In this document: positions 1 through 19,257 of the stretch, one piece after another
Layout of the letters: each line of letters begins with the position of its first letter
Numbering within the stretch: position 1 is the stretch's first letter
NCBI GenBank assembly: GCA_966238865.1
Contig: CBILQL010000001.1
Location: 1 to 29,813 of the forward strand
Reading direction: 5' to 3'
Origin: an uncultured bacterium
GTDB lineage: Bacteria > Fibrobacterota > Fibrobacteria > UBA11236
Length of the DNA: 29,813 nt
Position numbers and translations under genes: made by a program
Notes under the pieces: generated by a model
Told to the model about the DNA's origin: nothing
What the model saw: only the letters and a program-made list of their open reading frames with translations
Databases searched by the model: none

Positions 1-290
1 GCGACCGGCAGCGGGCCGACGGTCTGTACTTCTTCGTAGAGGTTGCGGCCGGTCCAGGGCGATCCCTCCCCGATGACGAAATTGCCCTTCCGGCTGTCTA
101 TGGTCATGGTATCCGGCGTGTAGGTCTGGATCTTGATGGCGTCAGCGCCCGATTCCTTGGCGGCCCGCAGGATGGCCAAGGCCTGCGCGAAATCCTGGTT
201 GTGGTTGGCGGACATCTCCGCGATGAGGTAGGCCGGCTGTCCGGGCCCCACCTTGCGCTTCCCGATGGTTATGCTTTCGACGGCGGGCAT
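1..290 (-). CDS. pseI: Pseudaminic acid synthase (NeuB family), 5' part; runs off the left edge
   Basis: Manual translation from ATG at 290: MPAVESITIGKRKVGPGQPAYLIAEMSANHNQDFAQALAILRAAKESGADAIKIQTYTPDTMTID. The IAEMSANHN and ADAIKIQTYTPDT motifs are typical of PseI. An AAAGGA RBS lies upstream. Not in the ORF track because no stop falls in the window. Confidence 0.92.
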   Translation of the reverse strand, partial: MPAVESITIGKRKVGPGQPAYLIAEMSANHNQDFAQALAILRAAKESGADAIKIQTYTPDTMTIDSRKGNFVIGEGSPWTGRNLYEEVQTVGPLPV

Positions 291-304
291 GGGATGGCTT
301 CCTT

Positions 305-988
305 TCAACGCAGGCTCCGGATCAGCTCGAAGGGTTCGGCGGCGTGGAAGCCCGCGACGGAGCCCCAGCGCACCGCGGCGGCCTCGACGGCCTTCAGGGA
401 TCGGGGATGGGGGAATCCGCAGACCTCGGTCGGGTAGCGGGAGAGCGCCTCGAGCTTGGCCGCCAGGCTGCCGCCGATGTCCACGAACACCTCCGGGCGG
501 AAGGGAGCGCCGACGCGGCCGAAGCCCCACTCCGTCGCGGAGTGGATCTCGAAGGCCAGCACCTCCTTGACGCAATGGCCGGGCTTGGGCCGCGTGGCCG
601 TCAGCACGGCACGGGCGACCACCTGGTGATCGACGTTCAGGTCGCCGCCGTGATGGGTGTAGACGATCTCCGGGGACAGGTCGGCGACCAGCTTCTCCAC
701 CGCCTTGACTACGTCGAGGAGCGGCAGCGAATCGAAGCGGTTGTCGGGCAGGCCGCCGAAGAAAACCTCCTTGACCCCGAGCGCGTCCGCGGCCCTGCGC
801 GCATCGGCCTCCAGGCCCCTCACCTTGCCCATGTCGGCGGACTCCCGGCTTCCGGCGCGGGAGGTGGCCCCTTCGCCCAGGATGGCCACGTAGACCTCGT
901 CCCCGCCGGCCGCGTGCCGGGCCATGGCTCCGCCGCATCCCAGAACCTCGTCGTCGGGATGGGCGGCCACGGTCAGGATCCGTTTCAT
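305..988 (-). CDS. PIG-L/LmbE family N-acetyl-sugar de-N-acetylase
   Basis: C-terminal 227 aa of track ORF 305..1477. MKRILTVAAHPDDEVLGCGG, HHGGDLNVDH and FPHPRS motifs. ATG at 988 overlaps the upstream stop (ATGA) and follows a GGAGGAGGAG RBS. Confidence 0.9.
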   Translation of the reverse strand: MKRILTVAAHPDDEVLGCGGAMARHAAGGDEVYVAILGEGATSRAGSRESADMGKVRGLEADARRAADALGVKEVFFGGLPDNRFDSLPLLDVVKAVEKLVADLSPEIVYTHHGGDLNVDHQVVARAVLTATRPKPGHCVKEVLAFEIHSATEWGFGRVGAPFRPEVFVDIGGSLAAKLEALSRYPTEVCGFPHPRSLKAVEAAAVRWGSVAGFHAAEPFELIRSLR

Positions 989-1686
989 GTCTCCTCCTCC
1001 TCCGGAGGGATGGGGGTGATGGTCACGTCGGCGGCGATGCGCCCGTCGTAGAGGGCGGCCCGCTTGAACCGGTAGCGGAAACCCCCGTGATCCAGGTAGG
1101 CGGCGGGATAGCCTTCCGCGTCCAGCATGCGGATGAAATCGTGGAGCGCGGCCGGGCTCCCCAGGGGCGGGATCTCGCTCTCCGAAGGCTTGCGGCGGGC
1201 AAAGAGGACCGGCTCCCCGGACTGCGCCTCCGGAACGGGCTCGCGGGCCGCGAGGTCGCGGATCATGTCGGCGGCCAGGCAGGCGGCCCGGATGTAGATC
1301 TCCTCCGCTCCCCCCTCCAGGGACAGGGGCCGCTTGGCGTAGACGGCCCCGGCGTCCATGGCCTCCGCCATGCGCAGGGCGGTGAGCCGCGTCTCCCTGT
1401 GCCCTCGGACGATGAGGTTCTGCAAGGGGCTGCCGCCGCGCCCGTACGGCACGTCGGTCATGTGGAAGCAGACGCATTCATGTGCGCCGGTGACGGACGC
1501 CGGAACCTTCCAGGACCAGTGCAGGAAGAAGAGGTAACGGGGCCGGTACGTACCCAGGTCGAAACCGGCCAGGGCCCCGGGGGAGTCCAGGTACTGCCAC
1601 CGGCCGGGCAGCCCCGCCAACCTCTCCTCGAACACGCGGCGGTTCCAGGGCTTGCAACCCAGGACCAGGTAGTTCTTCCCCTCCAT
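985..1686 (-). CDS. Formyltransferase (Fmt-fold, sugar N-formyltransferase type B)
   Basis: FLHWSW, CFHMTDVPYGRGGSPLQNLI and MDAG motifs plus an Fmt C-terminal-like FIRMLDAEGYP region. Start overlaps the upstream stop (TGATG). Confidence 0.85.
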   Translation of the reverse strand: MEGKNYLVLGCKPWNRRVFEERLAGLPGRWQYLDSPGALAGFDLGTYRPRYLFFLHWSWKVPASVTGAHECVCFHMTDVPYGRGGSPLQNLIVRGHRETRLTALRMAEAMDAGAVYAKRPLSLEGGAEEIYIRAACLAADMIRDLAAREPVPEAQSGEPVLFARRKPSESEIPPLGSPAALHDFIRMLDAEGYPAAYLDHGGFRYRFKRAALYDGRIAADVTITPIPPEEEET

Positions 1687-2447
1687 CAGCCGTCCTCGCC
1701 GTATTCCAGGCCGAGGCGCAGGTAGACCTTGCGGCCGCCGACGCGGATATAGGCCCCTTTGTACGGGGGGAAGGTCCGGGCGCGGATCACGTCCAGCAAC
1801 TCCTTGCCGCTATACATGCGATCCGGATGGATTTCGTCCACCCCGTCCACGTCCCGGGTGCGATGGTAGGTGCCCTTTTCCCCGGTTTGGGGCTTCCTCG
1901 GGGCCGTCCCCGCCTTCAGGGAGGGCCAGGTATCCTGGATCAGGGACAGGGAGGCGCGCTCCAGCTTCCGGTACAGGGTCTCTCCCGTGTCCACGGGCTC
2001 CGCCTCCACGCGCCGCTGGGCGATGAGGTCCCCGGTATCGATGCCGGGGTCGATGTAGTGCAGGGTGGTCCCCGAAGGGGTCCCTTCGATGATGCTCCAG
2101 ACGTTCGGGTATTGGCCGCGGTTGTAGGGCAGCAGCGCGGGATGCAGGTTCACCACGCCGCGGGGGAACAGGGAGATGAACTCCGGCTTCACCACGTAGT
2201 CGAAGAGCACCGAGAAGGCCAGATCGCATCGCAAGGAACGGATCGCCTCCAGCACCCCGGGATCCCCCAGGCGCGAACCGTCGAACACCTGTCGATCGGC
2301 GCCCCGGAACTCCGAGCGCATCTCCGCGCCGAATTTCCGCTTCGGCTCCGGATGCCAGACCAGGCCGGCCACGTCCTCGCCGGACTCCTCGAGCCATTAG
2401 AGCGCTTGCCATCCCAACCAATTATTGCCCAGCAAGAGGAGGCGCAT
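1686..2447 (-). pseudogene. Formyltransferase (sugar N-formyltransferase type A) interrupted by an in-frame TAA at codon 17 (2397-2399)
   Basis: ATG at 2447 overlaps the pseG stop (TGATG) and reads MRLLLLGNNWLGWQAL*WLEESGEDVAGLVWHPE in one frame. It continues into VNLHPALLPYNRG and HYIDPGIDTGD, the canonical formyltransferase N/H/D motifs. The stop may be a true nonsense allele or a base-call error. Confidence 0.8.
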
Positions 2448-3547
2448 CAACCGCTTTCCTCGCCGTCCAGGGCGGCGGCCACCCGGGCCGCGCCCCGTCC
2501 GTCGATCAGATCCCGGCCTTTGCCGGCCATCGCAGCCCTGGCCGGAGCCGAGTCCAGGAGGTCCCGGATTTCCGCGGCTATGCGCTGCGGGAGGAGGTCG
2601 GCATGCCAACCGAGGTTCACGCCCATCCCGTCCAGATCCAGCCTGGCGGCGATTTCCCGCTGGTTCTCCGCCACCACCACCAGCAGGGAGGGCAGTCCCG
2701 CGTGCATCAGCTCCCAGACCGTGCTTCCCGCGGCGGATACGGCGATGTCGGCCCAGCCCATCAGGCCGGGCATGTCCCGGACCTCCCTCTGCAAGGCGAA
2801 GTCCAGGTCGGGACGATCGGCCACGGCGGCCTCCAGGGAGGCCAGGTTGGGATTCACCATGCCCACCACGACCTTGACGGCCATTCCGGGGAAGGCGATG
2901 CCCTGCAGGGCGCGGATCACCCGCAAGGTGGCATTGTCCGGATCGCCGCCGCCCATGGTGACCAGGATATTCCTGGGATCCTCCGACGGGTCCCGTGGCG
3001 CGGATCCGGCTCCGGACCCGGCGGGCGGGGCGAGGAACTCCTTCCGGAGCATGGCGAAGCGGCTGCCCAGCAGGAGCGCGGCTCCCGGACGCCGCTCCCG
3101 ATACCAGCCTTCCCGGGCATGGATGTTCTGGTTCAGGATCAAGTCCGCCTCATAGGGCGCGCACTCCCCGTTGTCGTCGATGACGAGGAGGCGGACGCCC
3201 CCCTCCTTCAGGATGCGCTGGTAGGGCCCGGTGAAGGGGTATCCGTCGGTCACCACCGCCGCGGCCCCGAGCCGACGGGCCAGCGCAAGCGACTCCTCCG
3301 CATCCTCCCGGGAAGCCGGGGCGGACCGGATCCGGCTCGCCTCCACGCCTTCGGATCGCAGTCGCGCCTCCAGGGAGCCGGAAGCCCCGCCCAGTAGGAA
3401 ATGGGCTTTCCCGCCCCTGTCCATCCAGGCCTGCGCCAGCGCCAGGCAGCGCATGACATGCCCCGCCCCGATCCCGGCCCACGCGTCGGCGCGGATCAGG
3501 ATGGGCTTCGCCTCCCGGCCGGCCCCGCCCACGATGGACGCGTTCAT
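2447..3547 (-). CDS. pseG: UDP-2,4-diacylamido-2,4,6-trideoxy-beta-L-altropyranose hydrolase
   Basis: C-terminal 366 aa of track ORF 2447..5419. IRADAWAGIGAGHVMRCLALA, ILVTMGGGD and DIAVSAAGSTVWE match the GT-B-like PseG/SpsG family. ATGA overlap at 3544-3547. Confidence 0.88.
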   Translation of the reverse strand: MNASIVGGAGREAKPILIRADAWAGIGAGHVMRCLALAQAWMDRGGKAHFLLGGASGSLEARLRSEGVEASRIRSAPASREDAEESLALARRLGAAAVVTDGYPFTGPYQRILKEGGVRLLVIDDNGECAPYEADLILNQNIHAREGWYRERRPGAALLLGSRFAMLRKEFLAPPAGSGAGSAPRDPSEDPRNILVTMGGGDPDNATLRVIRALQGIAFPGMAVKVVVGMVNPNLASLEAAVADRPDLDFALQREVRDMPGLMGWADIAVSAAGSTVWELMHAGLPSLLVVVAENQREIAARLDLDGMGVNLGWHADLLPQRIAAEIRDLLDSAPARAAMAGKGRDLIDGRGAARVAAALDGEESG

Positions 3548-5607
3548 GGCTTCCTGAACACCGGCTGCACCGCCTCGCCTTCGAGGAACTTCCCGATGTC
3601 GCCGTCGCGCATGGCGGCGGCCACCACCTCCATCGCCGCGCGGTAGACGCGCAAGGTGTAGTCGATATCCTCGGGTCCGTGGCTGAAGCAGATATTGTGG
3701 AACCCGAGCTGGAGCACGCCCCGCTTGAGGCATTCCTGCTGGAATAGGCTCTTCACGATCAGGGAGTCCGCGCCCGAGGGATCCTTGAAGGAGGCCACGG
3801 TGCGGGCGGGCAGGCCCTGGAGGAAAAGCCGGTCGGACAGGCCGTAATGCGCGGACAGGATCTTGAACCCGTCGGCGAGGCGGCCGCCCTGCTCCCGCAG
3901 ATGCCCGATGACGTTCTTCTCCCGCATCTCCTCGAGGGTGGCCTTGGCCGCGCACAGGGAGAGGGCCTCGCCGCCGAAGGTGAAGGAGAAGAAGATCCTG
4001 TCCATCAGGGCCATGAGGTCCCGGGGTCCGGCGATGGCGGCCAGCGGGAAGCCGTTGGCCAGGGCCTTGCCGAAGCAGGCCAGGTCCGGGGTCACGCCGA
4101 AATATTCCTGCGCGCCGCCCGGCGCGAGCCGGAAGCCGGTGATGACCTCGTCGAAGACCAGGAGCGCCCCGTTCCTGCGGGCGATGTCCTTCACCTTCCC
4201 GAGGAAACCCTCCGCGGGCGGGATGGCCCCGATGGGCTCCAGGATCACGGCGGCGATCCGCCCCGGATGCTCGGCGAAGAGCTTCTCCAGGCTGGCCGGA
4301 TCGTTGTAGTTGAAATGGTGGATGAGAGCTTGGGTGGATGCCGGGACGCCCAGGTTGCGGGTGGTGGAGCCGATGTACCAATCCTGCCAGCCATGGTAGC
4401 CGCAGCAGGCCACGTGCTCGCGGCCGGTATGCGCCCGCGCGATGCGGATGGCGCCGGCCGTCACGTCCGACCCGTTCTTCCCGAAGCGCACCATCTCGGC
4501 GCAGGGGACCATGTCCACGATGAGCTCGGCGACCTCCACCTCCAGGGGATGCGGGAGCGAATAGCTGACGCCCTTCTTGAGCTGCCTTTCGACGGCCTGG
4601 TTCACCCTGGGATATCCGTATCCCAGGATGACGGGGCCGAGGCCCAGGATATAATCCACGTATTCGTTGCCGTCCACGTCCTTGACGCGGCAGCCAGTCC
4701 CCTCCTCCAGGAAGATGGGCGCCACGCCCTGGACGAACTGGTTGTATCCCTTGCTGAAGGTCTGGGTGCAGGACGGGATCAGTGCCTCGGCCTTCCGCTT
4801 CCACGCCAGGCTCTTCGCCAGGGATCTTTCGAGCGGCTTCATGGCCGGCTCCGCGGCCAGAGACTTGTAATACCCTTCGTTGCGTACCGTGCCCATGTTC
4901 AACTCCTCGAGCGCCGGCTCCTTCGCCAGCAATGCCAGGACGTCCTCCATCCCGAAACCGTCGCCGCGGCCCAGCCGTCCGTATACCGCCCGCACGAACT
5001 CCAGATCGCCCGGGTCGTCCACGGTCCAGCGCAGGTCGCGGGCGGACAGGTCCTCGGGGCTCTCCACGTTGCGGATCCGGAACCGGCCCGCGTCCTTGAG
5101 GAAGGGGGTCACGTGCTCGCGCTCGGCCGGCTGCCGTGCCTCCTTCCAGGCCCTTTCCAGGGCCTCGAACGAGAAGACCTCGGTGTCCAGGCCGTCCGGG
5201 TAGGTGTAGCGGAGGGTATTGGAGACGTAGTCGAGGCCGCCGTCCAGGTAAACCCTCACCACCTTGTCCACCACGGACGGGTCGAGCAGCGGGCAATCGG
5301 CGGTGATGCGCACCACGACGTCCGCCCCTTGGGCCTTGGCCGCCTGATAGTACCGGTCCAGCACGTCCGTCTCGCTGCCGCGGTGGAATCCGTACCCCTC
5401 GGCGGCGCACCAGTCGCAAATGGGATCATCGGCTTCGGAACCCGTGGTGGCGACCACCACGACATCCAGCGACGGCGCCCGGCTGGCCCGGTCCAGCACA
5501 CGGCCCAGCATTGCGCGGCCGCCGACATCCATCAGCACCTTGCCGGGCAGGCGCGTGGAGCCCATGCGGGCCTGCACGACCGCGACGACTCTCGGTTTCC
5601 CGGGCAT
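3544..5607 (-). CDS. Fusion: SpsF/PseF-like cytidylyltransferase + class-III (GSA-aminomutase-like) PLP aminotransferase
   Basis: Start MPGKPRVVAVVQARMGSTRLPGKVL (ATG 5607, GGAGG RBS). The N-domain has RITADCP and RWTVDD. The C-domain has DVDGNEYVDYILGLG, FGKNGSD, FDEVITGFR and FGKALANG (PLP lysine). Confidence 0.9.
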   Translation of the reverse strand: MPGKPRVVAVVQARMGSTRLPGKVLMDVGGRAMLGRVLDRASRAPSLDVVVVATTGSEADDPICDWCAAEGYGFHRGSETDVLDRYYQAAKAQGADVVVRITADCPLLDPSVVDKVVRVYLDGGLDYVSNTLRYTYPDGLDTEVFSFEALERAWKEARQPAEREHVTPFLKDAGRFRIRNVESPEDLSARDLRWTVDDPGDLEFVRAVYGRLGRGDGFGMEDVLALLAKEPALEELNMGTVRNEGYYKSLAAEPAMKPLERSLAKSLAWKRKAEALIPSCTQTFSKGYNQFVQGVAPIFLEEGTGCRVKDVDGNEYVDYILGLGPVILGYGYPRVNQAVERQLKKGVSYSLPHPLEVEVAELIVDMVPCAEMVRFGKNGSDVTAGAIRIARAHTGREHVACCGYHGWQDWYIGSTTRNLGVPASTQALIHHFNYNDPASLEKLFAEHPGRIAAVILEPIGAIPPAEGFLGKVKDIARRNGALLVFDEVITGFRLAPGGAQEYFGVTPDLACFGKALANGFPLAAIAGPRDLMALMDRIFFSFTFGGEALSLCAAKATLEEMREKNVIGHLREQGGRLADGFKILSAHYGLSDRLFLQGLPARTVASFKDPSGADSLIVKSLFQQECLKRGVLQLGFHNICFSHGPEDIDYTLRVYRAAMEVVAAAMRDGDIGKFLEGEAVQPVFRKP

Positions 5608-5609
5608 TC

Positions 5610-6611
5610 TCAAACCTCCCCTTCCAGGCGGATGGCCCGCCCCTCGACGGACGATCGTTTCGCCGCCATCGCCACGTCGAGTACGCGCCGCGCCTCGAAA
5701 ACGTCCTGGCAGGACCTCGCGGCGCCCTCCAGGCAGTCCAGGAAATGCCTTAATTCGTCGAGGTACATCACGTTGGGGTTCCATCCTTCCGGGAGGGGGA
5801 AATCCTCCCAGGCCCCGGCGGCCTTGCGCCACAGGCGGACTCCCGAAGCGGCGTCCCACCGCAGCGTGCCTTCCGAGCCGATGATATGGCAGGTGCGGCT
5901 GTAGACCCGCTGGAGATAGTCCATGTGGACTTCGCCCACCGCGCCGCCGCGGAACTTGAGGATCAGGGAAGCCATGTCCTCGGTGTCGATTTCCAGGCAT
6001 CCGGTGCGCGCGGCGTGGCAGGACACCTCCGCCACTTCGCCGGCGAGCCAGCGCACATAATCGATCTCGTGGATGTCGTCCAGGATCACGCCGCCGCCCA
6101 GGCGGGCGTTTGCGCTGTACCCTTTGCGGTAATCCTCCCAGGGGTGCCAGTCCGGCAGGTACTGGCCGAACTCGGCCCGCACCGCCAGCGTGCGGCCGAT
6201 GGCTCCGGACTCCAGCAGCTCCTTCGCCCTGCGCAGGCCCGGATGGAATCGGAGGTTGCATCCGACCAGGGTGACCAGGCTCCTGGAGCGGACCTCGCGC
6301 AGCAGCTCGTCGAGCCCGGCCATTTCGTGCGCCAGGGGCTTCTCGATGAAGAGGGGGCAGCCCCTGCGCGCGGCGTCCAGGGCGGGCGCGACGTGGAAAC
6401 TGGTGGGCGTGGTGACGAAGACCGCCTCAGGCTCCGCGGCCCAGGCAGCGGCCGGATCGGCGAAAGCTTGCACGCCTAGCTTTTCCCGGATTTCGACGCA
6501 GCGGTCCTCCCGGGTATCCAGGGCGAGCACCTCCTGGCCCAGGGCGAGGAGGTTGCCCATGTGCCGCCTGCCGATGGAGCCGCCGCCGATGACGAGGAAC
6601 CGCCGCTTCAT
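5610..6611 (-). CDS. Gfo/Idh/MocA family NAD(P)-dependent oxidoreductase
   Basis: Rossmann GGGSIG, EKP, and GGGVILDDIHEIDY motifs. Confidence 0.9.
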   Translation of the reverse strand: MKRRFLVIGGGSIGRRHMGNLLALGQEVLALDTREDRCVEIREKLGVQAFADPAAAWAAEPEAVFVTTPTSFHVAPALDAARRGCPLFIEKPLAHEMAGLDELLREVRSRSLVTLVGCNLRFHPGLRRAKELLESGAIGRTLAVRAEFGQYLPDWHPWEDYRKGYSANARLGGGVILDDIHEIDYVRWLAGEVAEVSCHAARTGCLEIDTEDMASLILKFRGGAVGEVHMDYLQRVYSRTCHIIGSEGTLRWDAASGVRLWRKAAGAWEDFPLPEGWNPNVMYLDELRHFLDCLEGAARSCQDVFEARRVLDVAMAAKRSSVEGRAIRLEGEV

Positions 6612-6620
6612 TGTCGGGAC

Positions 6621-7826
6621 CTATCCGGCATGATCCGCGAGCACCCGGGTAACCGTCGTGACAACCCTTTCGACATCCTCATCCTGCATGCCGTGGTACA
6701 TGGGCAGACTCAGGATCTCCTCGTAAGCCGCCTCGGCGACGGGACATAGACCCTCCCGGGTGCCGAAAGCCTTGCGGTAGAAAGGCTGCAGGTGGACCGG
6801 AAAATAGTGGACATTGGCACCGATGCCGGCCTTGCGCAGCTCGGCGAAGGCGCCGGCGCGATCGATCGCCAGCCGGTCCAGCGCCAGCCGCACCACGTAG
6901 AGGTGGTAGGCATGGCGCGCCTCGGCGGACCCCGCGAGGGGCCGAAGCAGGGGCGCCGGCGAACCGGGGCTGGAGGCGAAGGCGCCGTCGTAGCGGCCGG
7001 CGATCCGCCGGCGTCGCTCAAGCCAGGCCGGCAGCTTGCTGAGCTGGCTGGCGCCCAGGGCGCATTGGAAATCCGTGATGCGGTAGTTGTAGCCCAGCTC
7101 CTCCATCGCGTAGGCGAAGGTCCCCTTCTCCGTGCGCTGCCGGTGATCGGTGGAGATGCCGTGGTTGCGGAAGCGCTTCATGCGCCGGGCCAGATCGGGA
7201 TCGTCGGTGACGGCCATGCCGCCCTCCCCCGTGGTCACGTGCTTGACCGGATGGAAGCTGAAGAGGGTGATATCGGCCAGCGAGCCCACCTTGCGGCCGC
7301 GGTATTCCGCGCCCAGGGCATGGCAGGCGTCGGCGATCAGCCGCAAGCCCCGGCGATCGGCCAGCGCCCGCAGGGCCTGGTAGTCGCAGGGCTGTCCGGC
7401 GTAATCCACCGCCAGGATGGCTTTGGTCCGGGGCGTGACGGCCGCCTCCACCGCGGCAGGATCGAGGAGGAGGGATCCGTCCAGCACGTCGGCGAACATC
7501 GGACGGCCCCTCTGGAACACCACCGCGTTGGCCGTGGCCACGAAGGTGATGGGGGGGACGATGACCTCGTCCCCCTCCCCGATGCCGATGGCCTCCATGG
7601 CCATGTGCAGGGCGGCGGTCCCGTTGCAGACGGCAACGCCGTGCCTGGCGCCGGAGAATTCCGCCACCGCCTCCTCGAATCGATCGACGCTCGGACCCGT
7701 CGTCAGCCAATCGCCTTCGAGGACCCGCACCACCGCTTCGATGTCGTCGGGCCCGATGCTCTGGCGTCCGTAGGGGATGGCCTTGGGAGGATCCGCCTTC
7801 CCACGCCCGGTGTTCTCATGCATCAT
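6621..7826 (-). CDS. pseC: UDP-4-amino-4,6-dideoxy-N-acetyl-beta-L-altrosamine transaminase (DegT/DnrJ family)
   Basis: IPYGRQSI N-terminus, DACHALGA, FSFHPVKHVTTGEGG (PLP lysine), GYNYRITDFQCALG; pseB/pseG/pseI context. Start could be 7823. Confidence 0.9.
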   Translation of the reverse strand: MMHENTGRGKADPPKAIPYGRQSIGPDDIEAVVRVLEGDWLTTGPSVDRFEEAVAEFSGARHGVAVCNGTAALHMAMEAIGIGEGDEVIVPPITFVATANAVVFQRGRPMFADVLDGSLLLDPAAVEAAVTPRTKAILAVDYAGQPCDYQALRALADRRGLRLIADACHALGAEYRGRKVGSLADITLFSFHPVKHVTTGEGGMAVTDDPDLARRMKRFRNHGISTDHRQRTEKGTFAYAMEELGYNYRITDFQCALGASQLSKLPAWLERRRRIAGRYDGAFASSPGSPAPLLRPLAGSAEARHAYHLYVVRLALDRLAIDRAGAFAELRKAGIGANVHYFPVHLQPFYRKAFGTREGLCPVAEAAYEEILSLPMYHGMQDEDVERVVTTVTRVLADHAG

Positions 7827-10800
7827 AGTACGTCCTGAAATTCGCCAGCAGGCCGGGGTCCACGGCTATCGCATCCGGGAACCGTGTAGGCTCCGCGTCG
7901 GACAGGCGCGTGGCGTACCGGCCGGTCACCCCGCAATGCACGCCGGTGCCGTCCATGCCGATGTTGTCGATGTGCGATACCGTGGGATAGATGAAATGCC
8001 CGCGGTTGAGGTAGACCGTCAGCACCCAGTTGAGGGTCCAGACGTCCTTTGTGGTCCCCTGCAGGATGCCGTTCAGGGTCAGGGGGATGTCGCTCCCCCC
8101 CTGTGCCAGATCGATGCCGCGATCCAGGGCCTCGCGGGTCGCTTTGCGCAGGTCGCGCTCCAGCTTGCTCCAGGCGCGCTTCCAGGTGGCCCAGCCCCAG
8201 CTGCCGATGCGCGGCAGGAAATACAGGTCGTAGGGATAGCGCGCCAGCAGGGGCTCCGGGACGTTGACGGTATATCCGGAAATCCCGAAGACCTCCTCCC
8301 GGTCCCGGTAATGGGTGAGGGTCTTCCGCATGAATTCGAAGAAGCGCTTCTGGGGCACGCAATCGTCCTCCAGGAGGATGACGGTCTCGTGGCTTTCCAG
8401 GAGGCCGTCCACGGCGCCCATGATCGAGCGGGCCAGCCCGCGGTTCTCGGAGGCCTCGTGGATTTGGGGCCGCGTCCAGTCCACCGCACGGCAGAGCTTG
8501 CGGGTCCTTTCGACGGCCTCGGCATCCGCCCCGTTCCTCGCGCCGTCGCAGAAGATGTGGATGTTCCTGGCCCCCGAGTCCTTCAAGGCCGCGAGGACGC
8601 GGGCGGTGTGCTCTGGCCGCTTGTAGGCGACCAGCGCCACCGGAATGTCGTCCAGATCCATCGGCAGGCCGCGGGAGACCGCCGGCGCGGAGGCGGCCGG
8701 GGACGGCGCAGCCTTCCAGCCGTCCTCCGCGGATCGCGGGGTGGACGGCGGCGGAGCCGCAGGGTCCTTGCCGCGCGCGGCGACGATGCGAACCTGGTAG
8801 TTCCCGTTCCTCGCGGCGTGCTCGCGGCAGGCGCGGTGGAAGCCCTCTTCCCCGCGGGATTCCCAGACGGAGGCGTAGTCTGGAGGCCATTGGTGCTGGA
8901 CGTTCTCCGCGGCGAGGACCTCGAAACCGGCCGTTGCGAAGAGGTTCCCCAGGGTCATGGGATTCCAGGTGTACAGGTGCTTGTTCACGTCGGCAGGGTC
9001 GTAGGCGATCTGCGGGCCATCATGGGGGACCACGAACACGGCCCTGCCGCCGGGCTTCAGCTTCCGGCGCAGCAGCCGGAGGACTTCGAGGGGGGATTCC
9101 ACGTGCTCCAGGGCATGGTTGGAGACGATAACGTCGGCGCAGGCGTCCGGCAGATCGGCGGGGCTCTCGACGGCGTCGATGCCGCGCTCGATGGAAGCCT
9201 CCTTGCGTGCGACCTCGTTGATTTCCACGCCCAGCTTGGCCGCCCCCGGAAGGTTGCGCAGCAGGTACCCTCCCCCGCTGCCGAAGTCTATCACGGTATC
9301 GCCGGTCTTGACGTGGTCCCGGAACTTGAACAGGTTCGCGGCGCCGCCGAAGGCTCCCACCGATTTCTGCCACCGGAAGTAATCCTTCCCGTAGTACCCG
9401 CCCCCGCCCCCGGTAGCGGATTCCGCGCGGGCTTCCCCGGCGGGGTCCGCGCCGCGCGGGGCCCGCGCCGGCGCTCCGCCCGAGTCCCCGCCGGAACGGG
9501 AGAGGTGATGCGATGCCTGATCGGGGTGCACGGGATAGGACACGCGCGTGGCCTCCTGGAACTCGACCCTCGCTTCGTCCCGCTTGTCCTGGGCCAGGAG
9601 CAGGATGCCGTTCCAGAGGTGCAGGTGGCCGTCCATGGCCGCGTCCTTCCCGAGCATGCAGCGCAGGGTGGTCGCCAGAGCCTCGGGCAGCCGGCCGATG
9701 ATCAGCTCCTGCTGCAGGATGCGTCCGCGCTCGGCGGCCGGGGCCGAGGCGAACCCCAGGCTGTCGCGCATGGCCTGGAAAAGGGCGCCGCCTTCCCGGT
9801 AGGTCCGGGACAGTTCGTCGATCCAATGCGAGGCGAAGGAGAAGCCGAGGCGCGTCCTCCCGCGGGCGAACGGGCGGCCGGGCACCTTGCGCCCGCAGGT
9901 GAGGGTTTCGACCTGCCTGTGATCGGCCAGCAGCGGGCCGGCATGCTCGAGCCAGACCCGCCAGGGGCCGGGCCACCCGGGCTCCACGTCATGGAAGGCG
10001 ATCCAGCCGCCGTCCTTGACGAAGGGGTAGATCAGCTCGAAATCCTTGAGCACGTCGATATATTCGTGCGACGCGTCGATGAAGACGAAATCCAGCATGG
10101 GCCGCGACGACCAGGTGGGAAGCACGTCGTAGGTGAACCCCTTGAGGCCCTCGCAATGCCCCTCCACGCCCAACCGCTTCAGGTTGCCGAGACATTCCTG
10201 GTAGAAGTCGTGGGACTTGCCCATGATGCCGTCGTTGCCGCAGAAGGTGTCGATGGAATAGATGCGCTTGTCGCTGCCCATGCAGGCCAGGGCCATTGCG
10301 CTGGTGGACCGGCCCCGGTCCGCCCCCATCTCCAGGATATGGCCACCCTCCGGAACGGCCTTGGCCATTTCGAAGAGGAACTTCTCCTGCCCTTCGAGGA
10401 GCCATCCGGAGACGCTCTCCACCAGGGGCCGCGCCTCCTCGTAGGTGGCGTAGACCTTCTCCCGCGCGAAAGGATTACCCGGGACCGCGGACCAGCCGGT
10501 GGTTACGGGCCGCGGAACGGGGGCGGAGGCGTGCTTGGCCTCGCCCCCGGCATTCCCCTTCCAGCCCATGCCTTCGGCCATCCCGCGGACCTCCGCGTCC
10601 CCGGAGTTCCGGTCCAGGTAATGGGCCAGCATGGACAGGGCGGTGTCGGAGTCCCCCATCTGGCGGAGGAGGTCGGCGCTCCCCAGGATGGAGACCCTGT
10701 CGTAGGGATCGCGTTCCAGCCTGTCCGCGTAGGTGAGGAGCGCCTCCTTCACGGCGAGGTCGTCGGCCGGCGCCGCGGCGCGCGCCTCCCCCGGGAGCAT

Positions 10801-11418
10801 GGCCGGCGCTGCCACGGACGGCGGGTGGATGGTCAGCTGGGGAAGCCGGGTCTTGTGCACGCAGCTGTTCTCCTTACGCTCGTAGAAGGTGTTGAAGAAG
10901 AGGGCCGAGAAGTCCGCGGGGGATTCCAGGGAGAAGGCGTCCATGTATTCGCACACCGTCTGCAGGAAGGCGCGCCGCATCACGAAGAGCGCAAGCAGCT
11001 GGCCCGGATCCCGGAGGGCCGGGAAAGCCCTCGTGGCGGAGTCGAAGTCGGCCATGTCGGCCGCTGCCGTGAGGATCTCCCCGACCACCCTGCCGCCGCC
11101 GTCCGCCAGGCGGGCCGCCCAGGCCACGACCTGGAGGTCGAGCTCCTCCGACGCGCCGAATATCCCCACACTGCGATCCAGCATGCCCTCGTCCACGTCC
11201 ACGTTGTCCGGGGCCACGTACACGAACTCCCCTTCGGCCCGCGCCATCCCGGATTGCAGCGCCTCCGAGATTTCCTTGGAACCCGCGCCGGGCGGGAAGG
11301 CGACCTCTATGAACTGCAGGTTCCTATGCCGCGAACGCCTCAAGCTCGCGGCGGAACGGGATTCGCCGCGCGTCCCGTTCCCGCCGGAAACCAGCAATAC
11401 CGATATCAGGGGTTCCAT
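7816..11418 (-). CDS. ~1200-aa multidomain protein: degenerate GT2-like domain, TPR-like segment, class I SAM methyltransferase, TPR-like segment, second SAM methyltransferase, C-terminal GT-A glycosyltransferase
   Basis: Likely start ATG 11418 (MEPLISVLL) after GGGAGG; the track start is 11463. MT1: ILEMGADRGRS, FIDASHEY, GGWIAFHD. MT2: VIDFGSGGG, NHALEHV, LKPGG. GT: PVALVAYKRPEH, IFCDG, NRGLARS, ILLEDD, FGISGY. Confidence 0.8.
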   Translation of the reverse strand: MEPLISVLLVSGGNGTRGESRSAASLRRSRHRNLQFIEVAFPPGAGSKEISEALQSGMARAEGEFVYVAPDNVDVDEGMLDRSVGIFGASEELDLQVVAWAARLADGGGRVVGEILTAAADMADFDSATRAFPALRDPGQLLALFVMRRAFLQTVCEYMDAFSLESPADFSALFFNTFYERKENSCVHKTRLPQLTIHPPSVAAPAMLPGEARAAAPADDLAVKEALLTYADRLERDPYDRVSILGSADLLRQMGDSDTALSMLAHYLDRNSGDAEVRGMAEGMGWKGNAGGEAKHASAPVPRPVTTGWSAVPGNPFAREKVYATYEEARPLVESVSGWLLEGQEKFLFEMAKAVPEGGHILEMGADRGRSTSAMALACMGSDKRIYSIDTFCGNDGIMGKSHDFYQECLGNLKRLGVEGHCEGLKGFTYDVLPTWSSRPMLDFVFIDASHEYIDVLKDFELIYPFVKDGGWIAFHDVEPGWPGPWRVWLEHAGPLLADHRQVETLTCGRKVPGRPFARGRTRLGFSFASHWIDELSRTYREGGALFQAMRDSLGFASAPAAERGRILQQELIIGRLPEALATTLRCMLGKDAAMDGHLHLWNGILLLAQDKRDEARVEFQEATRVSYPVHPDQASHHLSRSGGDSGGAPARAPRGADPAGEARAESATGGGGGYYGKDYFRWQKSVGAFGGAANLFKFRDHVKTGDTVIDFGSGGGYLLRNLPGAAKLGVEINEVARKEASIERGIDAVESPADLPDACADVIVSNHALEHVESPLEVLRLLRRKLKPGGRAVFVVPHDGPQIAYDPADVNKHLYTWNPMTLGNLFATAGFEVLAAENVQHQWPPDYASVWESRGEEGFHRACREHAARNGNYQVRIVAARGKDPAAPPPSTPRSAEDGWKAAPSPAASAPAVSRGLPMDLDDIPVALVAYKRPEHTARVLAALKDSGARNIHIFCDGARNGADAEAVERTRKLCRAVDWTRPQIHEASENRGLARSIMGAVDGLLESHETVILLEDDCVPQKRFFEFMRKTLTHYRDREEVFGISGYTVNVPEPLLARYPYDLYFLPRIGSWGWATWKRAWSKLERDLRKATREALDRGIDLAQGGSDIPLTLNGILQGTTKDVWTLNWVLTVYLNRGHFIYPTVSHIDNIGMDGTGVHCGVTGRYATRLSDAEPTRFPDAIAVDPGLLANFRTYYDA

Positions 11419-11461
11419 GCGCCTCCCATGGGGATGGGTACCATTCCAATGAATTCCATCC

Positions 11462-11491
11462 ATTCTATGAAATCGGGGATTTGGAATTCAA
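11462..11491 (-). promoter_or_regulatory. Putative sigma70 promoter for the glycosylation operon
   Basis: Minus strand TTGAAT (11491-11486), N18, TAGAAT (11467-11462), about 45 nt upstream of ATG 11418. Confidence 0.6.
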
Positions 11492-11623
11492 CGCGCGAGG
11501 CGGGCCCGCGGGATGGCGGTTCCCCGCTTAGGTTTTTTGAGGGCGGCCGCCCCTTCCCCAACTTCCTCAATCCCGGCGGACGCGGGCCTCTGCAGTCTCC
11601 GGTAGCGGATGGATCGACGGGCA

Positions 11624-11632
11624 TGCTATCCT
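11624..11632 (+). promoter_or_regulatory. Putative extended -10 element for pseB
   Basis: TGCTATCCT fits TGnTAnnnT, 36 nt upstream of ATG 11669. The same TGCTAnnnT pattern occurs before three other genes in the window. Confidence 0.45.
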
Positions 11633-11668
11633 AGGAAAATGAGCATGGAGCGAGGGAACGGAGAGTTC

Positions 11669-12793
11669 ATGGATCTGACCAACAAATCGATTCTCGTGAC
11701 GGGAGGAACAGGTTCGTTCGGCCAGAAGTTCCTGCGGATGACCCTGGAACGCTTCACCCCCGCCCGCGTCGTCGTGTATTCGCGCGACGAGATGAAGCAA
11801 TGGGACATGGCCAACGCCTTCAAGAACCACCCCAAGAAGGATCTGATCCGCTTCTTCATCGGCGACGTGCGCGACAAGGAGCGGCTGCACCGCGCCTTCA
11901 GCGGCATCGACTTCGTGATCCACGCCGCCGCCGTCAAGATAGTCCCGGCCGCGGAATACAACCCGTTCGAGGCCATCAAGACGAACATAAACGGCGCCAT
12001 GAACATCATCGATTGCGCCATCGACCAAAAGGTGAAGCGCGTGGTGGCGCTCAGCACCGACAAGGCGTGCAATCCCGTGAACCTCTACGGCGCCACCAAA
12101 CTCTGCTCCGACAAGCTCTTCGTCGCCGGCAACAGCTACGGAGGCCACGGGGAAACCCGCTTCGCCGTGGTCCGCTACGGCAACGTGATGGGCAGCCGCG
12201 GCTCTATCATCCCGCTTTTCCTGTCCCTGGCCCGCACCAGGGAGATCCCCATCACCGACACGCGCATGACGCGCTTCATGATCACCCTGGATCAGGGCGT
12301 GGAGCTGGTCTGGCACGCCTTGGCCAATGCCGTGGGCGGCGATATCTACGTGCGGAAGATCCCTTCCATGAAGCTTCCGGACATCGCCCAGGCCTGCGCC
12401 CCCGGCGCGAAGCTCCGGATCATCGGTGTCCGCCCCGGGGAGAAGCTGCACGAGCAGATGATCAGCGTCGAGGACGCGGAGCATACCTGGGAGTACAAAT
12501 CCCATTACAAGATCCTGCCCTCCATCAACGGATGGGACAAGGACCCCCGCCGCATCGGGAACGGACGGAAATGCCCGGACGGGTTCTTCTATACCAGCGA
12601 CAACAACACGCAGTGGCTGTCCATCCCGGAGCTGAGGGCCTGGATGATCAAGGAGGCCACCCACCCGCACGGCATCCTCAAGGCCGAGGCCGAACTGGCC
12701 AGGAAGCTGGGCGACCCCGGCGCCGAAGGCAAGGAGGACTGGTCGCCGGACGCAAAATCCGCCGCTCCGCAGGATTCCTCCCTGCCGCGTTGA
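11669..12793 (+). CDS. pseB: UDP-N-acetylglucosamine 4,6-dehydratase (inverting)
   Basis: MDLTNKSILVTGGTGSFG, HAAAVKIVP, STDKACNPVNLYGATKL, VRYGNVMGSRGS, GVRPGEKLHE. Start 11669 is preferred to the track start 11609. Confidence 0.92.
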   Translation: MDLTNKSILVTGGTGSFGQKFLRMTLERFTPARVVVYSRDEMKQWDMANAFKNHPKKDLIRFFIGDVRDKERLHRAFSGIDFVIHAAAVKIVPAAEYNPFEAIKTNINGAMNIIDCAIDQKVKRVVALSTDKACNPVNLYGATKLCSDKLFVAGNSYGGHGETRFAVVRYGNVMGSRGSIIPLFLSLARTREIPITDTRMTRFMITLDQGVELVWHALANAVGGDIYVRKIPSMKLPDIAQACAPGAKLRIIGVRPGEKLHEQMISVEDAEHTWEYKSHYKILPSINGWDKDPRRIGNGRKCPDGFFYTSDNNTQWLSIPELRAWMIKEATHPHGILKAEAELARKLGDPGAEGKEDWSPDAKSAAPQDSSLPR

Positions 12794-14132: not shown

Positions 14133-15695
14133 ATGGCATTTACTGGAACCCCATCCTGGCGGGCATTCCTGCTCGGAACCCTGCTGGCGACGAACCAGGC
14201 CCTCCCTGCCGACCTCGTCCAGCATCTCTTCCCGCACAAGGACGGGGAGATAGCCAATACCGGCAACAACCTGGATCCGCTCCTCGAAGTGGGGAACAGC
14301 GGAAGCAAGGCCTGGATCCTCTATCAGACGGGCGGCACGGACCTTTCCTCGACAACCGGAGCGAACCTGACGCTTTACCTCGACAGCGTCCATGCTTCCG
14401 GAACGCTCAAGGTGTTCGCCCTGGAAAGCGCCGTACCGGCCCCGGAGCTGGATGTCGCGAGCGGAGACCTCGTCTACGACGATCTGGATCCCTGGACGGA
14501 GGTCGGCGTGACGACCGCGGACGGCGAAAAAATCCTCCGCATCGACCTGGATTCCCTTCTGGCGTCAGGCCCCTTCCACGGCCTGGTCCTGGAGGCCGCC
14601 GACGGGCTGCGGGTGGATATCGGCTCCAAGGACGGGCATCTCCAGCCTCTCATCGAGCTGAAATACGCATCCGCGACGCCGGAACAGGTGAACGCGGCCA
14701 TCACCGCGGCCACCGACGCGGCCGCCGCGGCTTCCGCCATCCTCTTCACCACGAGCTCCACGACCCCTTCGGGATTCAGCAGCACCGGGGTCCGGATCAG
14801 CTCGGAATCCCCTTCACCCTGGAACGTCAAGACATCCCTTTCCCCGGCGCGGTTGAGCCTGGCCTCGGCGGTGCTGGCCGGGAAGCTGCACATCGTAGGC
14901 GGTCGGGCGAGCGGCGCGACCTTCTACGACACGCACCAGTCCTACGACCCCGCCACCAACGCCTGGACCACCCTGGCCGGCATGCCGGCCTCCTTGTCCA
15001 ACCTCACCCTGACCGAGGCCGGCGGTTACCTGTACGCCATCGGCGGGCGGGACAACTCGAGCACCAAATCCTCCGTCTACCGCTATGATCCGGGGACGAA
15101 CGTCTGGAGCACCATGGCTTCCCTGTCCATGGCGCGCATGGATCACAGGACGGTCTCCTACGCGGGGAAAATCCACGTCCTGGACGGCGACCCCAATGCC
15201 ACCGGGGTCGAGACCACGTCCCATGAAGTGTACGACATCGCCGGGAACTCCTGGAGCGCGGGCACCGCCCTCCCCACCGCACGGTACGGATTTTCCGCCT
15301 CCGAGGTGGGCGGCAAGTTCTACCTGATAGGGGGAGTGACGTCCGCCGGCAGCCCGTCGGCGCTGAACCAGGCCTACGTTCCCGTCTCGTCGACGTGGAG
15401 CACCCTGACGCCCATGGACAGGCCCCGCTATGCGCAGGCGACCGTGGTCGCGAACGGCCTCATCTACATGTTCGCCGGGAACCGGACCAGCGCGATCTCG
15501 GACTGCGAGCAATACGATCCGGTTTCCGACACCTTCACGCCGGTTTCGTCGGCGCCTTCGGCGAGGTCCTGGCTGGCCGGCGGGCTCATCGGAGGCAAGG
15601 CCCACATCGTCGGCGGGTACGACGGGAGCAATCCCCTGGCCACGCATGAGGCCTATTCCATTCCCGTGACCCTGTTCGGCATCCTGAGGGATTGA
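14133..15695 (+). CDS. Secreted protein with an N-terminal beta-rich domain, Ala-rich linker and six Kelch repeats
   Basis: Signal-like N-terminus (WRAFLLGTLLATNQA). Six repeats with the GG...Y/W Kelch spacing run from W at 14820 to the C-terminus. The N-domain ends in GSKDGHLQPLIELKY, reminiscent of DNRLRE/CBM96-like modules (low confidence). Confidence 0.85.
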   Translation: MAFTGTPSWRAFLLGTLLATNQALPADLVQHLFPHKDGEIANTGNNLDPLLEVGNSGSKAWILYQTGGTDLSSTTGANLTLYLDSVHASGTLKVFALESAVPAPELDVASGDLVYDDLDPWTEVGVTTADGEKILRIDLDSLLASGPFHGLVLEAADGLRVDIGSKDGHLQPLIELKYASATPEQVNAAITAATDAAAAASAILFTTSSTTPSGFSSTGVRISSESPSPWNVKTSLSPARLSLASAVLAGKLHIVGGRASGATFYDTHQSYDPATNAWTTLAGMPASLSNLTLTEAGGYLYAIGGRDNSSTKSSVYRYDPGTNVWSTMASLSMARMDHRTVSYAGKIHVLDGDPNATGVETTSHEVYDIAGNSWSAGTALPTARYGFSASEVGGKFYLIGGVTSAGSPSALNQAYVPVSSTWSTLTPMDRPRYAQATVVANGLIYMFAGNRTSAISDCEQYDPVSDTFTPVSSAPSARSWLAGGLIGGKAHIVGGYDGSNPLATHEAYSIPVTLFGILRD

Positions 15696-19172: not shown

Positions 19173-19235
19173 GGCTTCGATCTCTTCCTTCCCGGCCCCG
19201 TCGAAGGCCTTCGGCTGGCAAGGAAAGTACTTAAT

Positions 19236-19244
19236 TGCTAAGAT
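19236..19244 (+). promoter_or_regulatory. Putative extended -10 element for metF
   Basis: TGCTAAGAT, 13 nt before ATG 19258. Confidence 0.5.
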
Positions 19245-19257
19245 TCAAACCCATACC

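Follow-up and report, generated by a model that had tools for sequence, protein, structure and literature searches.

The first 12,793 positions of the window (the whole 29,813-nucleotide stretch of DNA analyzed here) hold a real operon for a surface sugar of the pseudaminic acid (Pse) type, with three tailoring modules. Since each of the modules is found again in many uncultured bacteria, and one of them has already been characterized, the operon is a fairly common variant. We think it probable, though well short of certain, that this modular operon (1-12793) specifies a CMP-activated Pse-type nonulosonate that would be formylated at N7, deacetylated and re-acylated at N5, activated by an SpsF-type enzyme and given an extra amine, and that the TAA codon interrupting one of its genes is not fixed. 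The features are as follows.

3-290, minus strand: 5' part of pseI, first 96 codons, cut at position 1 by the contig end
305-988, minus strand: PIG-L/LmbE-family de-N-acetylase, 227 aa
985-1686, minus strand: fmtB, 1ZGH-family formyltransferase-like protein, 233 aa
1686-2447, minus strand: fmtA, predicted PseJ-like sugar N-formyltransferase, 253 codons if read through
2397-2399, minus strand: in-frame TAA at fmtA codon 17, seen directly in the sequence
2447-3547, minus strand: pseG, UDP-sugar hydrolase, 366 aa
3544-5607, minus strand: CTP_transf_3::Aminotran_3 fusion (SpsF-type cytidylyltransferase plus class-III PLP aminotransferase, AT3)
5610-6611, minus strand: Gfo/Idh/MocA NAD(P) oxidoreductase, 333 aa
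6621-7826, minus strand: pseC, UDP-4-amino-4,6-dideoxy-N-acetyl-beta-L-altrosamine transaminase
7816-11463, minus strand: gene for a 1215-aa multidomain protein
11609/11669-12793, plus strand: pseB, inverting UDP-GlcNAc 4,6-dehydratase, likely start 11669

The core pathway and its conservation

Profile searches recovered all the genes named in the original prediction: pseB, pseC, pseG, pseI and a cytidylyltransferase domain, together with two formyltransferases, a PIG-L protein, a Gfo/Idh/MocA oxidoreductase and a class-III aminotransferase. The four stop/start overlaps that it listed are also real (ATGA at 985-988 and 3544-3547, TGATG at 1686 and 2447); pseB is divergent from the remaining operon genes. 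PseB, PseC and PseG exceed the cut-offs of their NCBIfam equivalogs (TIGR03589, 497 bits versus 407.75; TIGR03588, 448.1 versus 423.5; TIGR03590, 205.3 versus 153.55), and the PseI N-terminus, which also matches PF03102, scores 90 bits over positions 2-67 of TIGR03586 versus 32 bits for NeuB. The contig begins at window position 1 and so truncates pseI to 96 codons; the rest of the gene is missing from the assembly, and no other PseI fragment occurs anywhere in the genome. Judging from family membership, PseB and PseC would make UDP-4-amino-4,6-dideoxy-beta-L-AltNAc, PseG would remove UDP and PseI would condense the sugar with PEP.

The order pseB-pseC-gfo-fusion-pseG-[slot]-pseI is found in most of 80 related loci from many phyla, so that chance is a very poor account of it. 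The complete gene set is also present in two unrelated metagenome-assembled genomes (L062 and L075), and its sub-modules are spread across hundreds to thousands of genomes. With the PseJ route already described for the N7-formyl step (PMC11040635), the set loses the unusual character first attributed to it.

Probable N7-formylation in place of PseH

The fmtA product combines PF00551 with PF18216, has the "formyltransferase PseJ" structures 6CI2/6CI4 as its best solved relative (E 8e-27) and retains the catalytic motifs NLHP...DTGD (Asn/His/Asp). Full-length homologues of 253 aa occur in four related loci (L027, L040, L061 and L102). Relatives have a GNAT domain in the pseG-pseI interval, usually as a fusion with PseG: most of their PseG reading frames are about 500 aa long with a C-terminal GNAT, whereas PseG here is the short form without it. 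Among the 55 loci having a contiguous pseG-pseI stretch, 40 carry the GNAT, eight carry fmtA and none carries both. As had been claimed, the window holds no PseH-type GNAT; neither PseH nor a GNAT of the cluster type is present in the genome assembly, which is 84% complete. With pseI cut short and the genome at that level of completeness, the absence of PseH, like that of PseF (see below), rests partly on relatives. The possibility that a pseH lies just past the left edge is unlikely, the relatives' GNAT being placed between pseG and pseI and never alongside fmtA. PMC11040635 cites PseJ as the enzyme of the Pse5Ac7Fo pathway. The proposal that formylation replaces the PseH step in a Pse-type pathway is supported by the PseJ match, the slot and the exclusion of GNAT. 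By homology and position, N7-formylation by a PseJ-like FmtA that would stand in for the PseH acetyltransferase, giving the known Pse5Ac7Fo route, is well supported.

A de-N-acetylase paired with a variant formyltransferase

The PIG-L protein matches PF02585 with 95.7 bits (cut-off 28.2) and has the AHPDDE motif; as BshB or MshB it falls far under the respective equivalog cut-offs. FmtB matches PF21553 (75.5 bits) and PDB entry 1ZGH (E 2.5e-54), and scores only 27.7 bits for the fmt profile TIGR00460 (cut-off 201.5). Its active site is a variant, C-V-C-F-H...D, in which Cys-x-His replaces Asn-x-His; Cys73, His75 and Asp111 are kept in 97-100% of 120 homologues. PIG-L adjoins fmtB in all eight fmtB loci of the 55-locus set, and the two also occur together in three independent Pse clusters without Gfo or AT3, one of which lies within a flagellar locus; in these eight loci and three further clusters, fmtB was never seen without PIG-L. 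In our reading, PIG-L would remove the GlcNAc-derived N5-acetyl group and FmtB would re-acylate the freed amine, most simply with formyl, or the amine would stay free. Lacking the canonical Asn, FmtB may use another acyl donor or catalyze another reaction. A pairing of deacetylase and formyltransferase has a precedent in Ca. Kuenenia, where it has already been tied to a nonulosonate with a free amine and an N-formyl group (bioRxiv 10.64898/2026.04.20.719630).

Proposed CMP activation and a possible third amino group

The fusion protein consists of an SpsF-type cytidylyltransferase (aa ~1-240; PF02348, 99.8 bits; PDB 6OEW, E 6e-37) and a class-III aminotransferase resembling GSA aminomutase (aa ~255-687; PF00202, 173.4 bits; GSAM, E 4e-60), in which the PLP lysine (FGKA) and the FDEVITGFR motif are conserved. 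About 8000 homologues of the fusion, at 60-65% identity, are distributed across phyla, and Gfo and the fusion occur together in at least 573 species. The Gfo gene, whose product contains PF01408, PF22725 and PF02894, lies directly upstream of the fusion gene in 61 of the 80 loci; in one case (P0108) the two are joined as a single chain. As PseF the cytidylyltransferase domain is rejected (20 bits versus a TIGR03584 cut-off of 205.7), and no PseF was found in the genome or in five other fusion-bearing genomes, one of them a complete chromosome. The SpsF-type domain would replace PseF as CMP-nonulosonate synthetase, much as Caulobacter finishes its Pse pathway with FlmC, a cytidylyltransferase that is no relative of PseF (PMC7591256).

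The Gfo/Idh/MocA enzyme would oxidize a secondary hydroxyl to a ketone, C8 being the most plausible site, and the fused aminotransferase would turn the ketone into an amine, the third amino group. An 8-amino-3,5,7,8,9-pentadeoxy-manno-nonulosonate is known from the O-antigen of Flexibacter maritimus (PMC3210612). We found no literature assignment of a reaction to Gfo and the fusion, nor published assays of the enzymes of this module or of the PIG-L/FmtB module; we infer the target position of the Gfo/AT3 pair, its preference for the free or CMP-linked substrate and, indeed, that a nonulosonate is its substrate at all.

The 1215-aa protein

According to Pfam, this protein comprises a GT2-like GT-A domain, TPR, Methyltransf_24, Methyltransf_23 and a GT13 (GnT-I)-like GT-A domain. 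Both GT-A domains are of the metal type, with DxD/EDD motifs (EDD in the GT13-like one). The AF2 model of the C-terminal domain (pLDDT 88) matches POMGnT1/GnT-I (E 1e-10 to 4e-12), and the N-terminal model matches the GT2 folds of SpsA, TarP and WrtF. The C-terminal module is common to many giant glycosyltransferase/methyltransferase proteins, and the whole protein is found in none of the 80 related loci. With GT-A domains of the NDP-sugar type and no link to a CMP-nonulosonate, it makes a poor candidate for the nonulosonate transferase that it was proposed to be, and no other transferase for the product was identified in the window.

Alternative interpretations

A sugar more modified than Pse5Ac7Ac, as originally predicted, is still the likeliest product, because the de-N-acetylase and an oxidizing/aminating pair are present; the N7-formyl step of that prediction has already been described (PMC11040635). 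It seems quite improbable that only Pse5Ac7Fo or a close N-acyl variant is made while PIG-L/FmtB and Gfo/AT3 have their targets elsewhere, for instance on an acyl side chain or a different sugar of the glycan, and share the locus only by virtue of serving one surface structure. The substrates of the four tailoring enzymes are unassigned, and the adjacent 1215-aa protein, with GT-A domains of the NDP-sugar type and methyltransferases, two of each, implies that other sugars are built here. However, fmtB and PIG-L lie between pseG and pseI with overlapping stops and starts, here and in unrelated clusters; AT3 is fused to the sole candidate CMP-nonulosonate synthetase; and, from phylum to phylum, both modules stay with the Pse core whereas the glycosyltransferases around it change. 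Very improbable, in our view, is a real and fixed nonsense codon in fmtA, which would leave N7 acylation missing, the nonulosonate unfinished and the pathway off. The TAA does stand in the window sequence, and the next start, GTG 2372, would delete the first beta-strand of the fold. Yet independently assembled Logan contigs from three public runs (X1, X2 and X4), the probable source sample included, have T at plus-strand position 2399, hence AAA (Lys), albeit at low depth (2.8-4.9). In homologues this codon encodes K, R, Q, E or T, and the remaining operon genes are intact, with coding-type GC3 (0.78-0.89). Because three other public assemblies read AAA, the TAA probably reflects an error of assembly or a rare or minor variant and not a fixed knockout.

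A third alternative, unlikely but deserving thought, is that Gfo and the class-III PLP domain alter stereochemistry or move a group, so that the product would be a 5,7-diamino stereoisomer and not a triamino sugar. This could involve epimerization by oxidation and reduction at C8 or C4, in the manner of EpaA/EpaB, or a PLP-dependent reaction of the epimerase or aminomutase kind at a carbon that carries an amine. AT3 need not add nitrogen, since GSA-aminomutase-like enzymes include mutases, racemases and epimerases; its closest solved relatives are aminomutases, and the fold includes racemases and 6'-epimerases. Moreover, EpaA (CTP_transf_3 plus reductase) converts Pse to 8-epi-Pse together with EpaB, and a Moritella Pse cluster has at the equivalent position an SpsF::aldo-keto-reductase fusion with a dehydrogenase. 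On the other hand, one or two oxidoreductases suffice for epimerization via a ketone, and the simplest reading of an intact, conserved PLP enzyme fused to its partners is ketone transamination. PLP chemistry at N7 and N5 is blocked by the acyl groups that these normally bear, and of the 80 loci having AT3 just 17 also have the PIG-L that would unblock N5.

Comparison with known systems

The canonical route to CMP-Pse5Ac7Ac in Campylobacter jejuni and Helicobacter pylori proceeds through PseB, PseC, PseH, PseG, PseI and PseF. The present locus shares with it equivalog-level PseB, PseC and PseG and the PseI N-terminus, begins from the same substrate and takes the core steps in the same order. 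In contrast, it has a formyltransferase instead of PseH, an SpsF-type cytidylyltransferase::aminotransferase instead of PseF, and four extras (PIG-L, FmtB, Gfo and AT3). The predicted enzyme FmtA resembles PseJ (6CI2/6CI4), its nearest solved relative, in the Asn-His-Asp motifs, and it occupies the PseH slot; it differs in an extra VioF-type C-terminal dimerization domain (PF18216) and, in this assembly, in the probably spurious stop.

In Ca. Kuenenia stuttgartiensis, CMP-nonulosonates have been observed in which one amine is free and another formylated (bioRxiv 10.64898/2026.04.20.719630, SugarBase preprint). Its nonulosonate cluster likewise has a de-N-acetylase and a formyltransferase, the pairs being likened by gene content and not by sequence; however, it is Leg-type (legB/legC/legG) and not Pse-type, with no Gfo/AT3 reported. 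The flm pathway of Caulobacter crescentus (FlmA, B, H, D, NeuB and FlmC; PMC7591256) and SpsF of Bacillus subtilis provide precedents for a functional Pse pathway with a PseF-unrelated cytidylyltransferase beside a PseG homologue. FlmC, likened to the domain studied here by role and not by sequence, is a stand-alone protein without an aminotransferase, and Caulobacter uses a GNAT (FlmH).

Further analogies come from EpaA/EpaB of Acinetobacter baumannii prophages, which remodel C8 of Pse (PMC12053666), and from the SpsF::aldo-keto-reductase fusion of Moritella/Aliivibrio Pse clusters (PMC7371886). All join CTP_transf_3 to a tailoring enzyme, with a second redox enzyme and a Pse-type sugar. The Moritella/Aliivibrio fusion follows pseC, as here, whereas epaA-epaB reside on prophages outside the K locus. 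In the present operon the cytidylyltransferase is joined to a PLP aminotransferase and paired with a redox enzyme of the Gfo/Idh/MocA family; amination, and not epimerization, would therefore be expected.

Results

The stretch is the opening 29.8 kb of contig C1, which belongs to a metagenome-assembled genome (G000; 902 contigs, 84% complete), position 1 being the contig end, and the public runs that hold its sequence are rhizosphere and soil metagenomes. Operon genes were called from GC3-supported ORFs and HMM scans. Housekeeping genes occupy the stretch right of 12.8 kb.

Genes of the pseudaminic-acid (Pse) operon, with window coordinates and strand
3..290, minus: pseI, first 96 codons only, cut by the contig end
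305..988, minus: PIG-L/LmbE-type de-N-acetylase
985..1686, minus: fmtB, 1ZGH-family formyltransferase-like protein
1686..2447, minus: fmtA, PseJ-like sugar N-formyltransferase
2447..3547, minus: pseG
3544..5607, minus: CTP_transf_3::Aminotran_3 fusion, 687 aa
5610..6611, minus: Gfo/Idh/MocA oxidoreductase
6621..7826, minus: pseC
7816..11463, minus: multidomain gene, 1215 aa
11609/11669..12793, plus: pseB, divergent from the minus-strand operon

The four stop/start overlaps that the original prediction had reported between operon genes are indeed present. Three core enzymes score above the NCBIfam equivalog cut-offs of their families: the inverting UDP-GlcNAc 4,6-dehydratase PseB (TIGR03589, 497 bits against 407.75), the aminotransferase PseC (TIGR03588, 448.1 against 423.5) and the UDP-sugar hydrolase PseG (TIGR03590, 205.3 against 153.55). 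The 96 codons of pseI that precede the contig end, for which a full-length score is impossible, give 90 bits with the PseI profile versus 32 with that of NeuB. Two canonical steps are missing. The best match to the PseH GNAT family (TIGR03585) in this 84% complete genome reaches 23 bits, the cut-off being 93.1, and a tblastn search of the genome with the GNAT domains of related clusters yields no match. For PseF (TIGR03584, cut-off 205.7) the fusion scores 20 bits and a KdsB-like gene 41.6 in the genome-wide search, and PseF is likewise below the cut-off in five other genomes carrying the fusion. These sub-threshold matches, the only ones obtained, speak against a PseH or PseF hidden elsewhere in the genome.

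The fusion joins an SpsF-type cytidylyltransferase (CT) to a class-III aminotransferase (AT3). Databases list some 8000 relatives of it, spread over many phyla and 60-65% identical, and a relative is encoded in at least 573 species-level genomes. Among 80 fetched loci encoding such relatives, the neighbours are pseC (72), pseG (69), pseB (68), pseI (65) and gfo (61), and the order pseB-pseC-gfo-fusion-pseG-slot-pseI, in which the slot is a variable gene position, is widely kept. Where pseB is found in these loci, it is mostly the gene immediately before pseC, in the same orientation. In the window (7816-12793) pseB is inverted and a 3.6-kb multidomain gene separates it from pseC, a layout suggestive of an insertion or inversion at this site. 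The CT domain (PF02348, 99.8 bits) is of the SpsF/COG1861 type, its nearest structures being SpsF-type enzymes (PDB 6OEW cytidylyltransferase, E 6e-37, residues 7-234); neither this genome nor the five other carriers have another candidate for the CMP-nonulosonate synthetase. AT3 retains the PLP lysine as well as the fold. One fusion relative, P0108 (1038 aa), contains Gfo/Idh/MocA, cytidylyltransferase and class-III aminotransferase in one chain, which is fusion evidence that the members of this trio would act together.

A separate 2.7-kb contig of the same genome, C744 (locus L098), carries at 1069-2675 a second SpsF-type cytidylyltransferase gene, which the contig end truncates, and after it a gene of the Gfo/Idh/MocA family; this pair may be a piece of a second sugar cluster.

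The fmtA product has the Formyl_trans_N fold (PF00551, 74.5 bits). Its closest solved structure is the formyltransferase PseJ (6CI2/6CI4, E 8e-27), with which the NLHP and DTGD motifs align; it has the catalytic residues Asn-His-Asp, lies in a Pse cluster and takes the position of PseH. PseJ is cited in PMC11040635 as the enzyme completing the Pse5Ac7Fo pathway. Slot occupancy, counted by ORF-length and tblastn censuses, shows the same substitution elsewhere. In the 55 of the 80 loci where pseG and pseI are contiguous, a GNAT is found 40 times, mostly fused to the C-terminus of a PseG of about 500 aa, and fmtA follows a short PseG, as in the window, 8 times; the two never occur together (0/55). 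By these sequence comparisons fmtA is PseJ-like and would stand in for PseH, its predicted reaction being the transfer of formyl from N10-formyl-THF to UDP-4-amino-4,6-dideoxy-L-AltNAc. The possibility, raised with the original prediction, that pseH lies just past the left edge is unlikely given this mutual exclusion. The check proposed there, to obtain sequence left of position 1, leads no further, as the window begins at the contig start and the 902-contig assembly contains no other fragment of PseI. Other slot occupants, in loci L018, L016 and L038, are WbqC-like proteins and class-I methyltransferases.

As assembled, fmtA reads MRLLLLGNNWLGWQAL*WLEESGEDV, with an in-frame TAA at 2397-2399. 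Taken at face value this would make fmtA a pseudogene, a main reading that we reject because plus-strand position 2399 is T and not A, giving AAA (Lys), in Logan contigs from three runs: one probably of the source sample itself, one of its sister sample and one, from another study, of a strain further removed. The depth of these contigs is low (2.8-4.9). In homologues of fmtA, several of them 253 aa long, this position is occupied by K, R, Q, E or T. Since three runs read AAA and homologues have an amino acid there, the likeliest source of the TAA is a fault of the assembly or a rare variant. A second mismatch lies 34 bases from the TAA, at 2433, where the contigs of two of the runs, X1 and X2, have plus-strand G and not C, changing fmtA codon 5 from Leu to Phe. 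Such close spacing of two changes hints at a mixture of strains or at an assembly fault confined to this spot.

The fmtB product matches PF21553 and PDB 1ZGH (E 2.5e-54). A comparison of 120 homologues (60-74% identity) shows next to no variation in the motif C-V-C-F-H-M-T-D-V-P-x-G-R-G-G-S-P-L-Q-N-L or at Asp111; Cys replaces the canonical Asn in 97%. The adjacent PIG-L/LmbE protein (PF02585, 95.7 bits) contains VAAHPDDEVLGCGG, with the metal-binding AHPDDE motif, in its translation and falls below the BshB and MshB equivalog cut-offs. All eight loci with fmtB also have PIG-L (8/8); where PIG-L occurs without fmtB, its companion is a methyltransferase or a WbqC-like protein. Three independently fetched Pse clusters combine fmtB, PIG-L and NeuB/PseI with a stand-alone SpsF-type cytidylyltransferase and lack Gfo and AT3. 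One of the three, a metagenomic flagellar locus (L102, 8243-14818), has the order fmtA-fmtB-PIG-L-neuB-CT-pseG-flagellin-fliD-fliS, which, in at least one organism, ties the block of two formyltransferases and a deacetylase to the glycosylation of flagellin.

Models of the 1215-aa multidomain protein, built with AF2 and alignments, place a GT2-like GT-A domain at the N-terminus and, at the C-terminus, a GT-A domain that resembles GT13/GnT-I and has an EDD motif without variation (pLDDT 88; E 1e-10 to 4e-12 against POMGnT1 and GnT-I). TPR segments and two methyltransferase domains lie in between, and close homologues have some 540 additional N-terminal residues. Known CMP-nonulosonate transferases are Maf/MptE-like or FlmG-type GT-B enzymes. 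Both GT domains here are GT-A folds with DxD/EDD, neither Maf/MptE-like nor GT-B. Flagellins are present in the genome, and no Maf (PF01973) is found in it. The idea that this protein attaches the sugar is thus not supported: its modelled folds are of the GT2/GT13 type, none of the 80 related loci encodes it, and many unrelated giant GT/MT proteins, diverse in architecture, share its C-terminal module. The argument is one of fold class and falls short of proof.

Two further features of the window are recorded here. Two genes downstream of pseB (14133-15695, plus strand) is a 520-aa Kelch beta-propeller protein whose N-terminal part of about 230 aa is non-Kelch; it reaches 38.8 bits, below the cut-off of 45, with PF24996, the family of the sialic-acid mutarotase NanM. 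A role in nonulosonate binding or processing is possible, as is a coincidental nearness to pseB. A methylenetetrahydrofolate reductase and a protein with a 5-formyl-THF cyclo-ligase domain, at 18931-20145 and 27641-28984, share the window with the two folate-type formyltransferases, by co-location only.

Discussion

Sugars of the Pse type decorate flagella, S-layers and polysaccharides and shape phage and host recognition. The stretch studied here is a real, intact-looking modular Pse-type operon. The operon is not rare, and its gene set is not unique to the window: the full set recurs in the same order in a Ca. Sulfotelmatobacter genome (L062, a MAG) and rearranged in Ca. Australimonas (L075). 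A comparable CT and AT3 are found in only 3 of 18 genomes of the window's own family, at 41-51% identity, whereas relatives in other phyla reach 61-65%. This distribution points to patchy, probably horizontal inheritance.

Database names would assign two of the tailoring enzymes to other pathways. Naming fmtB a methionyl-tRNA formyltransferase conflicts with its score against the Fmt equivalog (TIGR00460, 27.7 bits; cut-off 201.5) and with a canonical Asn-x-His that lacks its Asn; the simplest reading of fmtB and PIG-L together is that PIG-L would remove the GlcNAc-derived N5-acetyl group, to be followed by re-acylation. AT3 bears the name glutamate-1-semialdehyde 2,1-aminomutase. It stays under the HemL cut-offs (TIGR00713, 265.6 bits against 527.3; NF004856, 430.9 against 486), and it is encoded among sugar genes, not with those for making haem. 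One could still envision an aminomutase-type exchange between N7 and an oxidised C8; this is unlikely since N7 would be acylated ahead of the PseG and PseI steps. We prefer a mechanism in which Gfo would oxidise the sugar and AT3 then transaminate the ketone, probably at C8. This preference comes from three precedents and a known sugar: in Caulobacter, a reconstituted Pse pathway is completed by FlmC, which is unrelated to PseF (PMC7591256); EpaA, a CTP_transf_3 domain fused to a reductase, remodels C8 of Pse together with EpaB (PMC12053666); a comparable SpsF::reductase fusion follows pseC in Moritella (PMC7371886); and the sugar, an 8-amino-pentadeoxy-manno-nonulosonate, has been described chemically in Flexibacter maritimus (PMC3210612). 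A paper on the O-antigen cluster of this species (T. maritimum) leaves the genes behind the 8-amino sugar without assignment. Searches of the literature for a characterised example of the Gfo/CT::AT3 trio or of the 1ZGH family gave context papers only. It is tempting to speculate, though we would not wager on it, that the trio is the genetic basis of 5,7,8-triamino nonulosonates (8-amino-8-deoxy Pse-type) in many phyla, and that the PseJ-like N7-formylation and the PIG-L/fmtB exchange at N5 in the window would turn such a sugar into an undescribed N-formylated triamino derivative.

With a gene set that is not unique, in a fragmented assembly and with the cluster cut by the contig end, the value of this particular window is modest. 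Its interest lies in presenting the Pse pathway of environmental bacteria as a series of exchangeable modules: the choice of the N7 acyl group, deacetylation and re-acylation at N5, and oxidation and amination fused to the activating enzyme. Two of the three are very common and have no assigned reaction. Assigning them would provide annotation for thousands of genes mislabelled 'methionyl-tRNA formyltransferase' or 'glutamate-1-semialdehyde aminomutase' and could also explain the origin of 8-amino nonulosonates. Set against known systems, the tailoring steps differ from one another. That of Gfo and the CT::AT3 fusion is common and without an assigned reaction; that of PseJ is known already; and that of PIG-L and fmtB has a published parallel in Ca. 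Kuenenia, whose Leg-type cluster contains a deacetylase and a formyltransferase and whose CMP-nonulosonates carry one free and one formylated amine (bioRxiv 10.64898/2026.04.20.719630).
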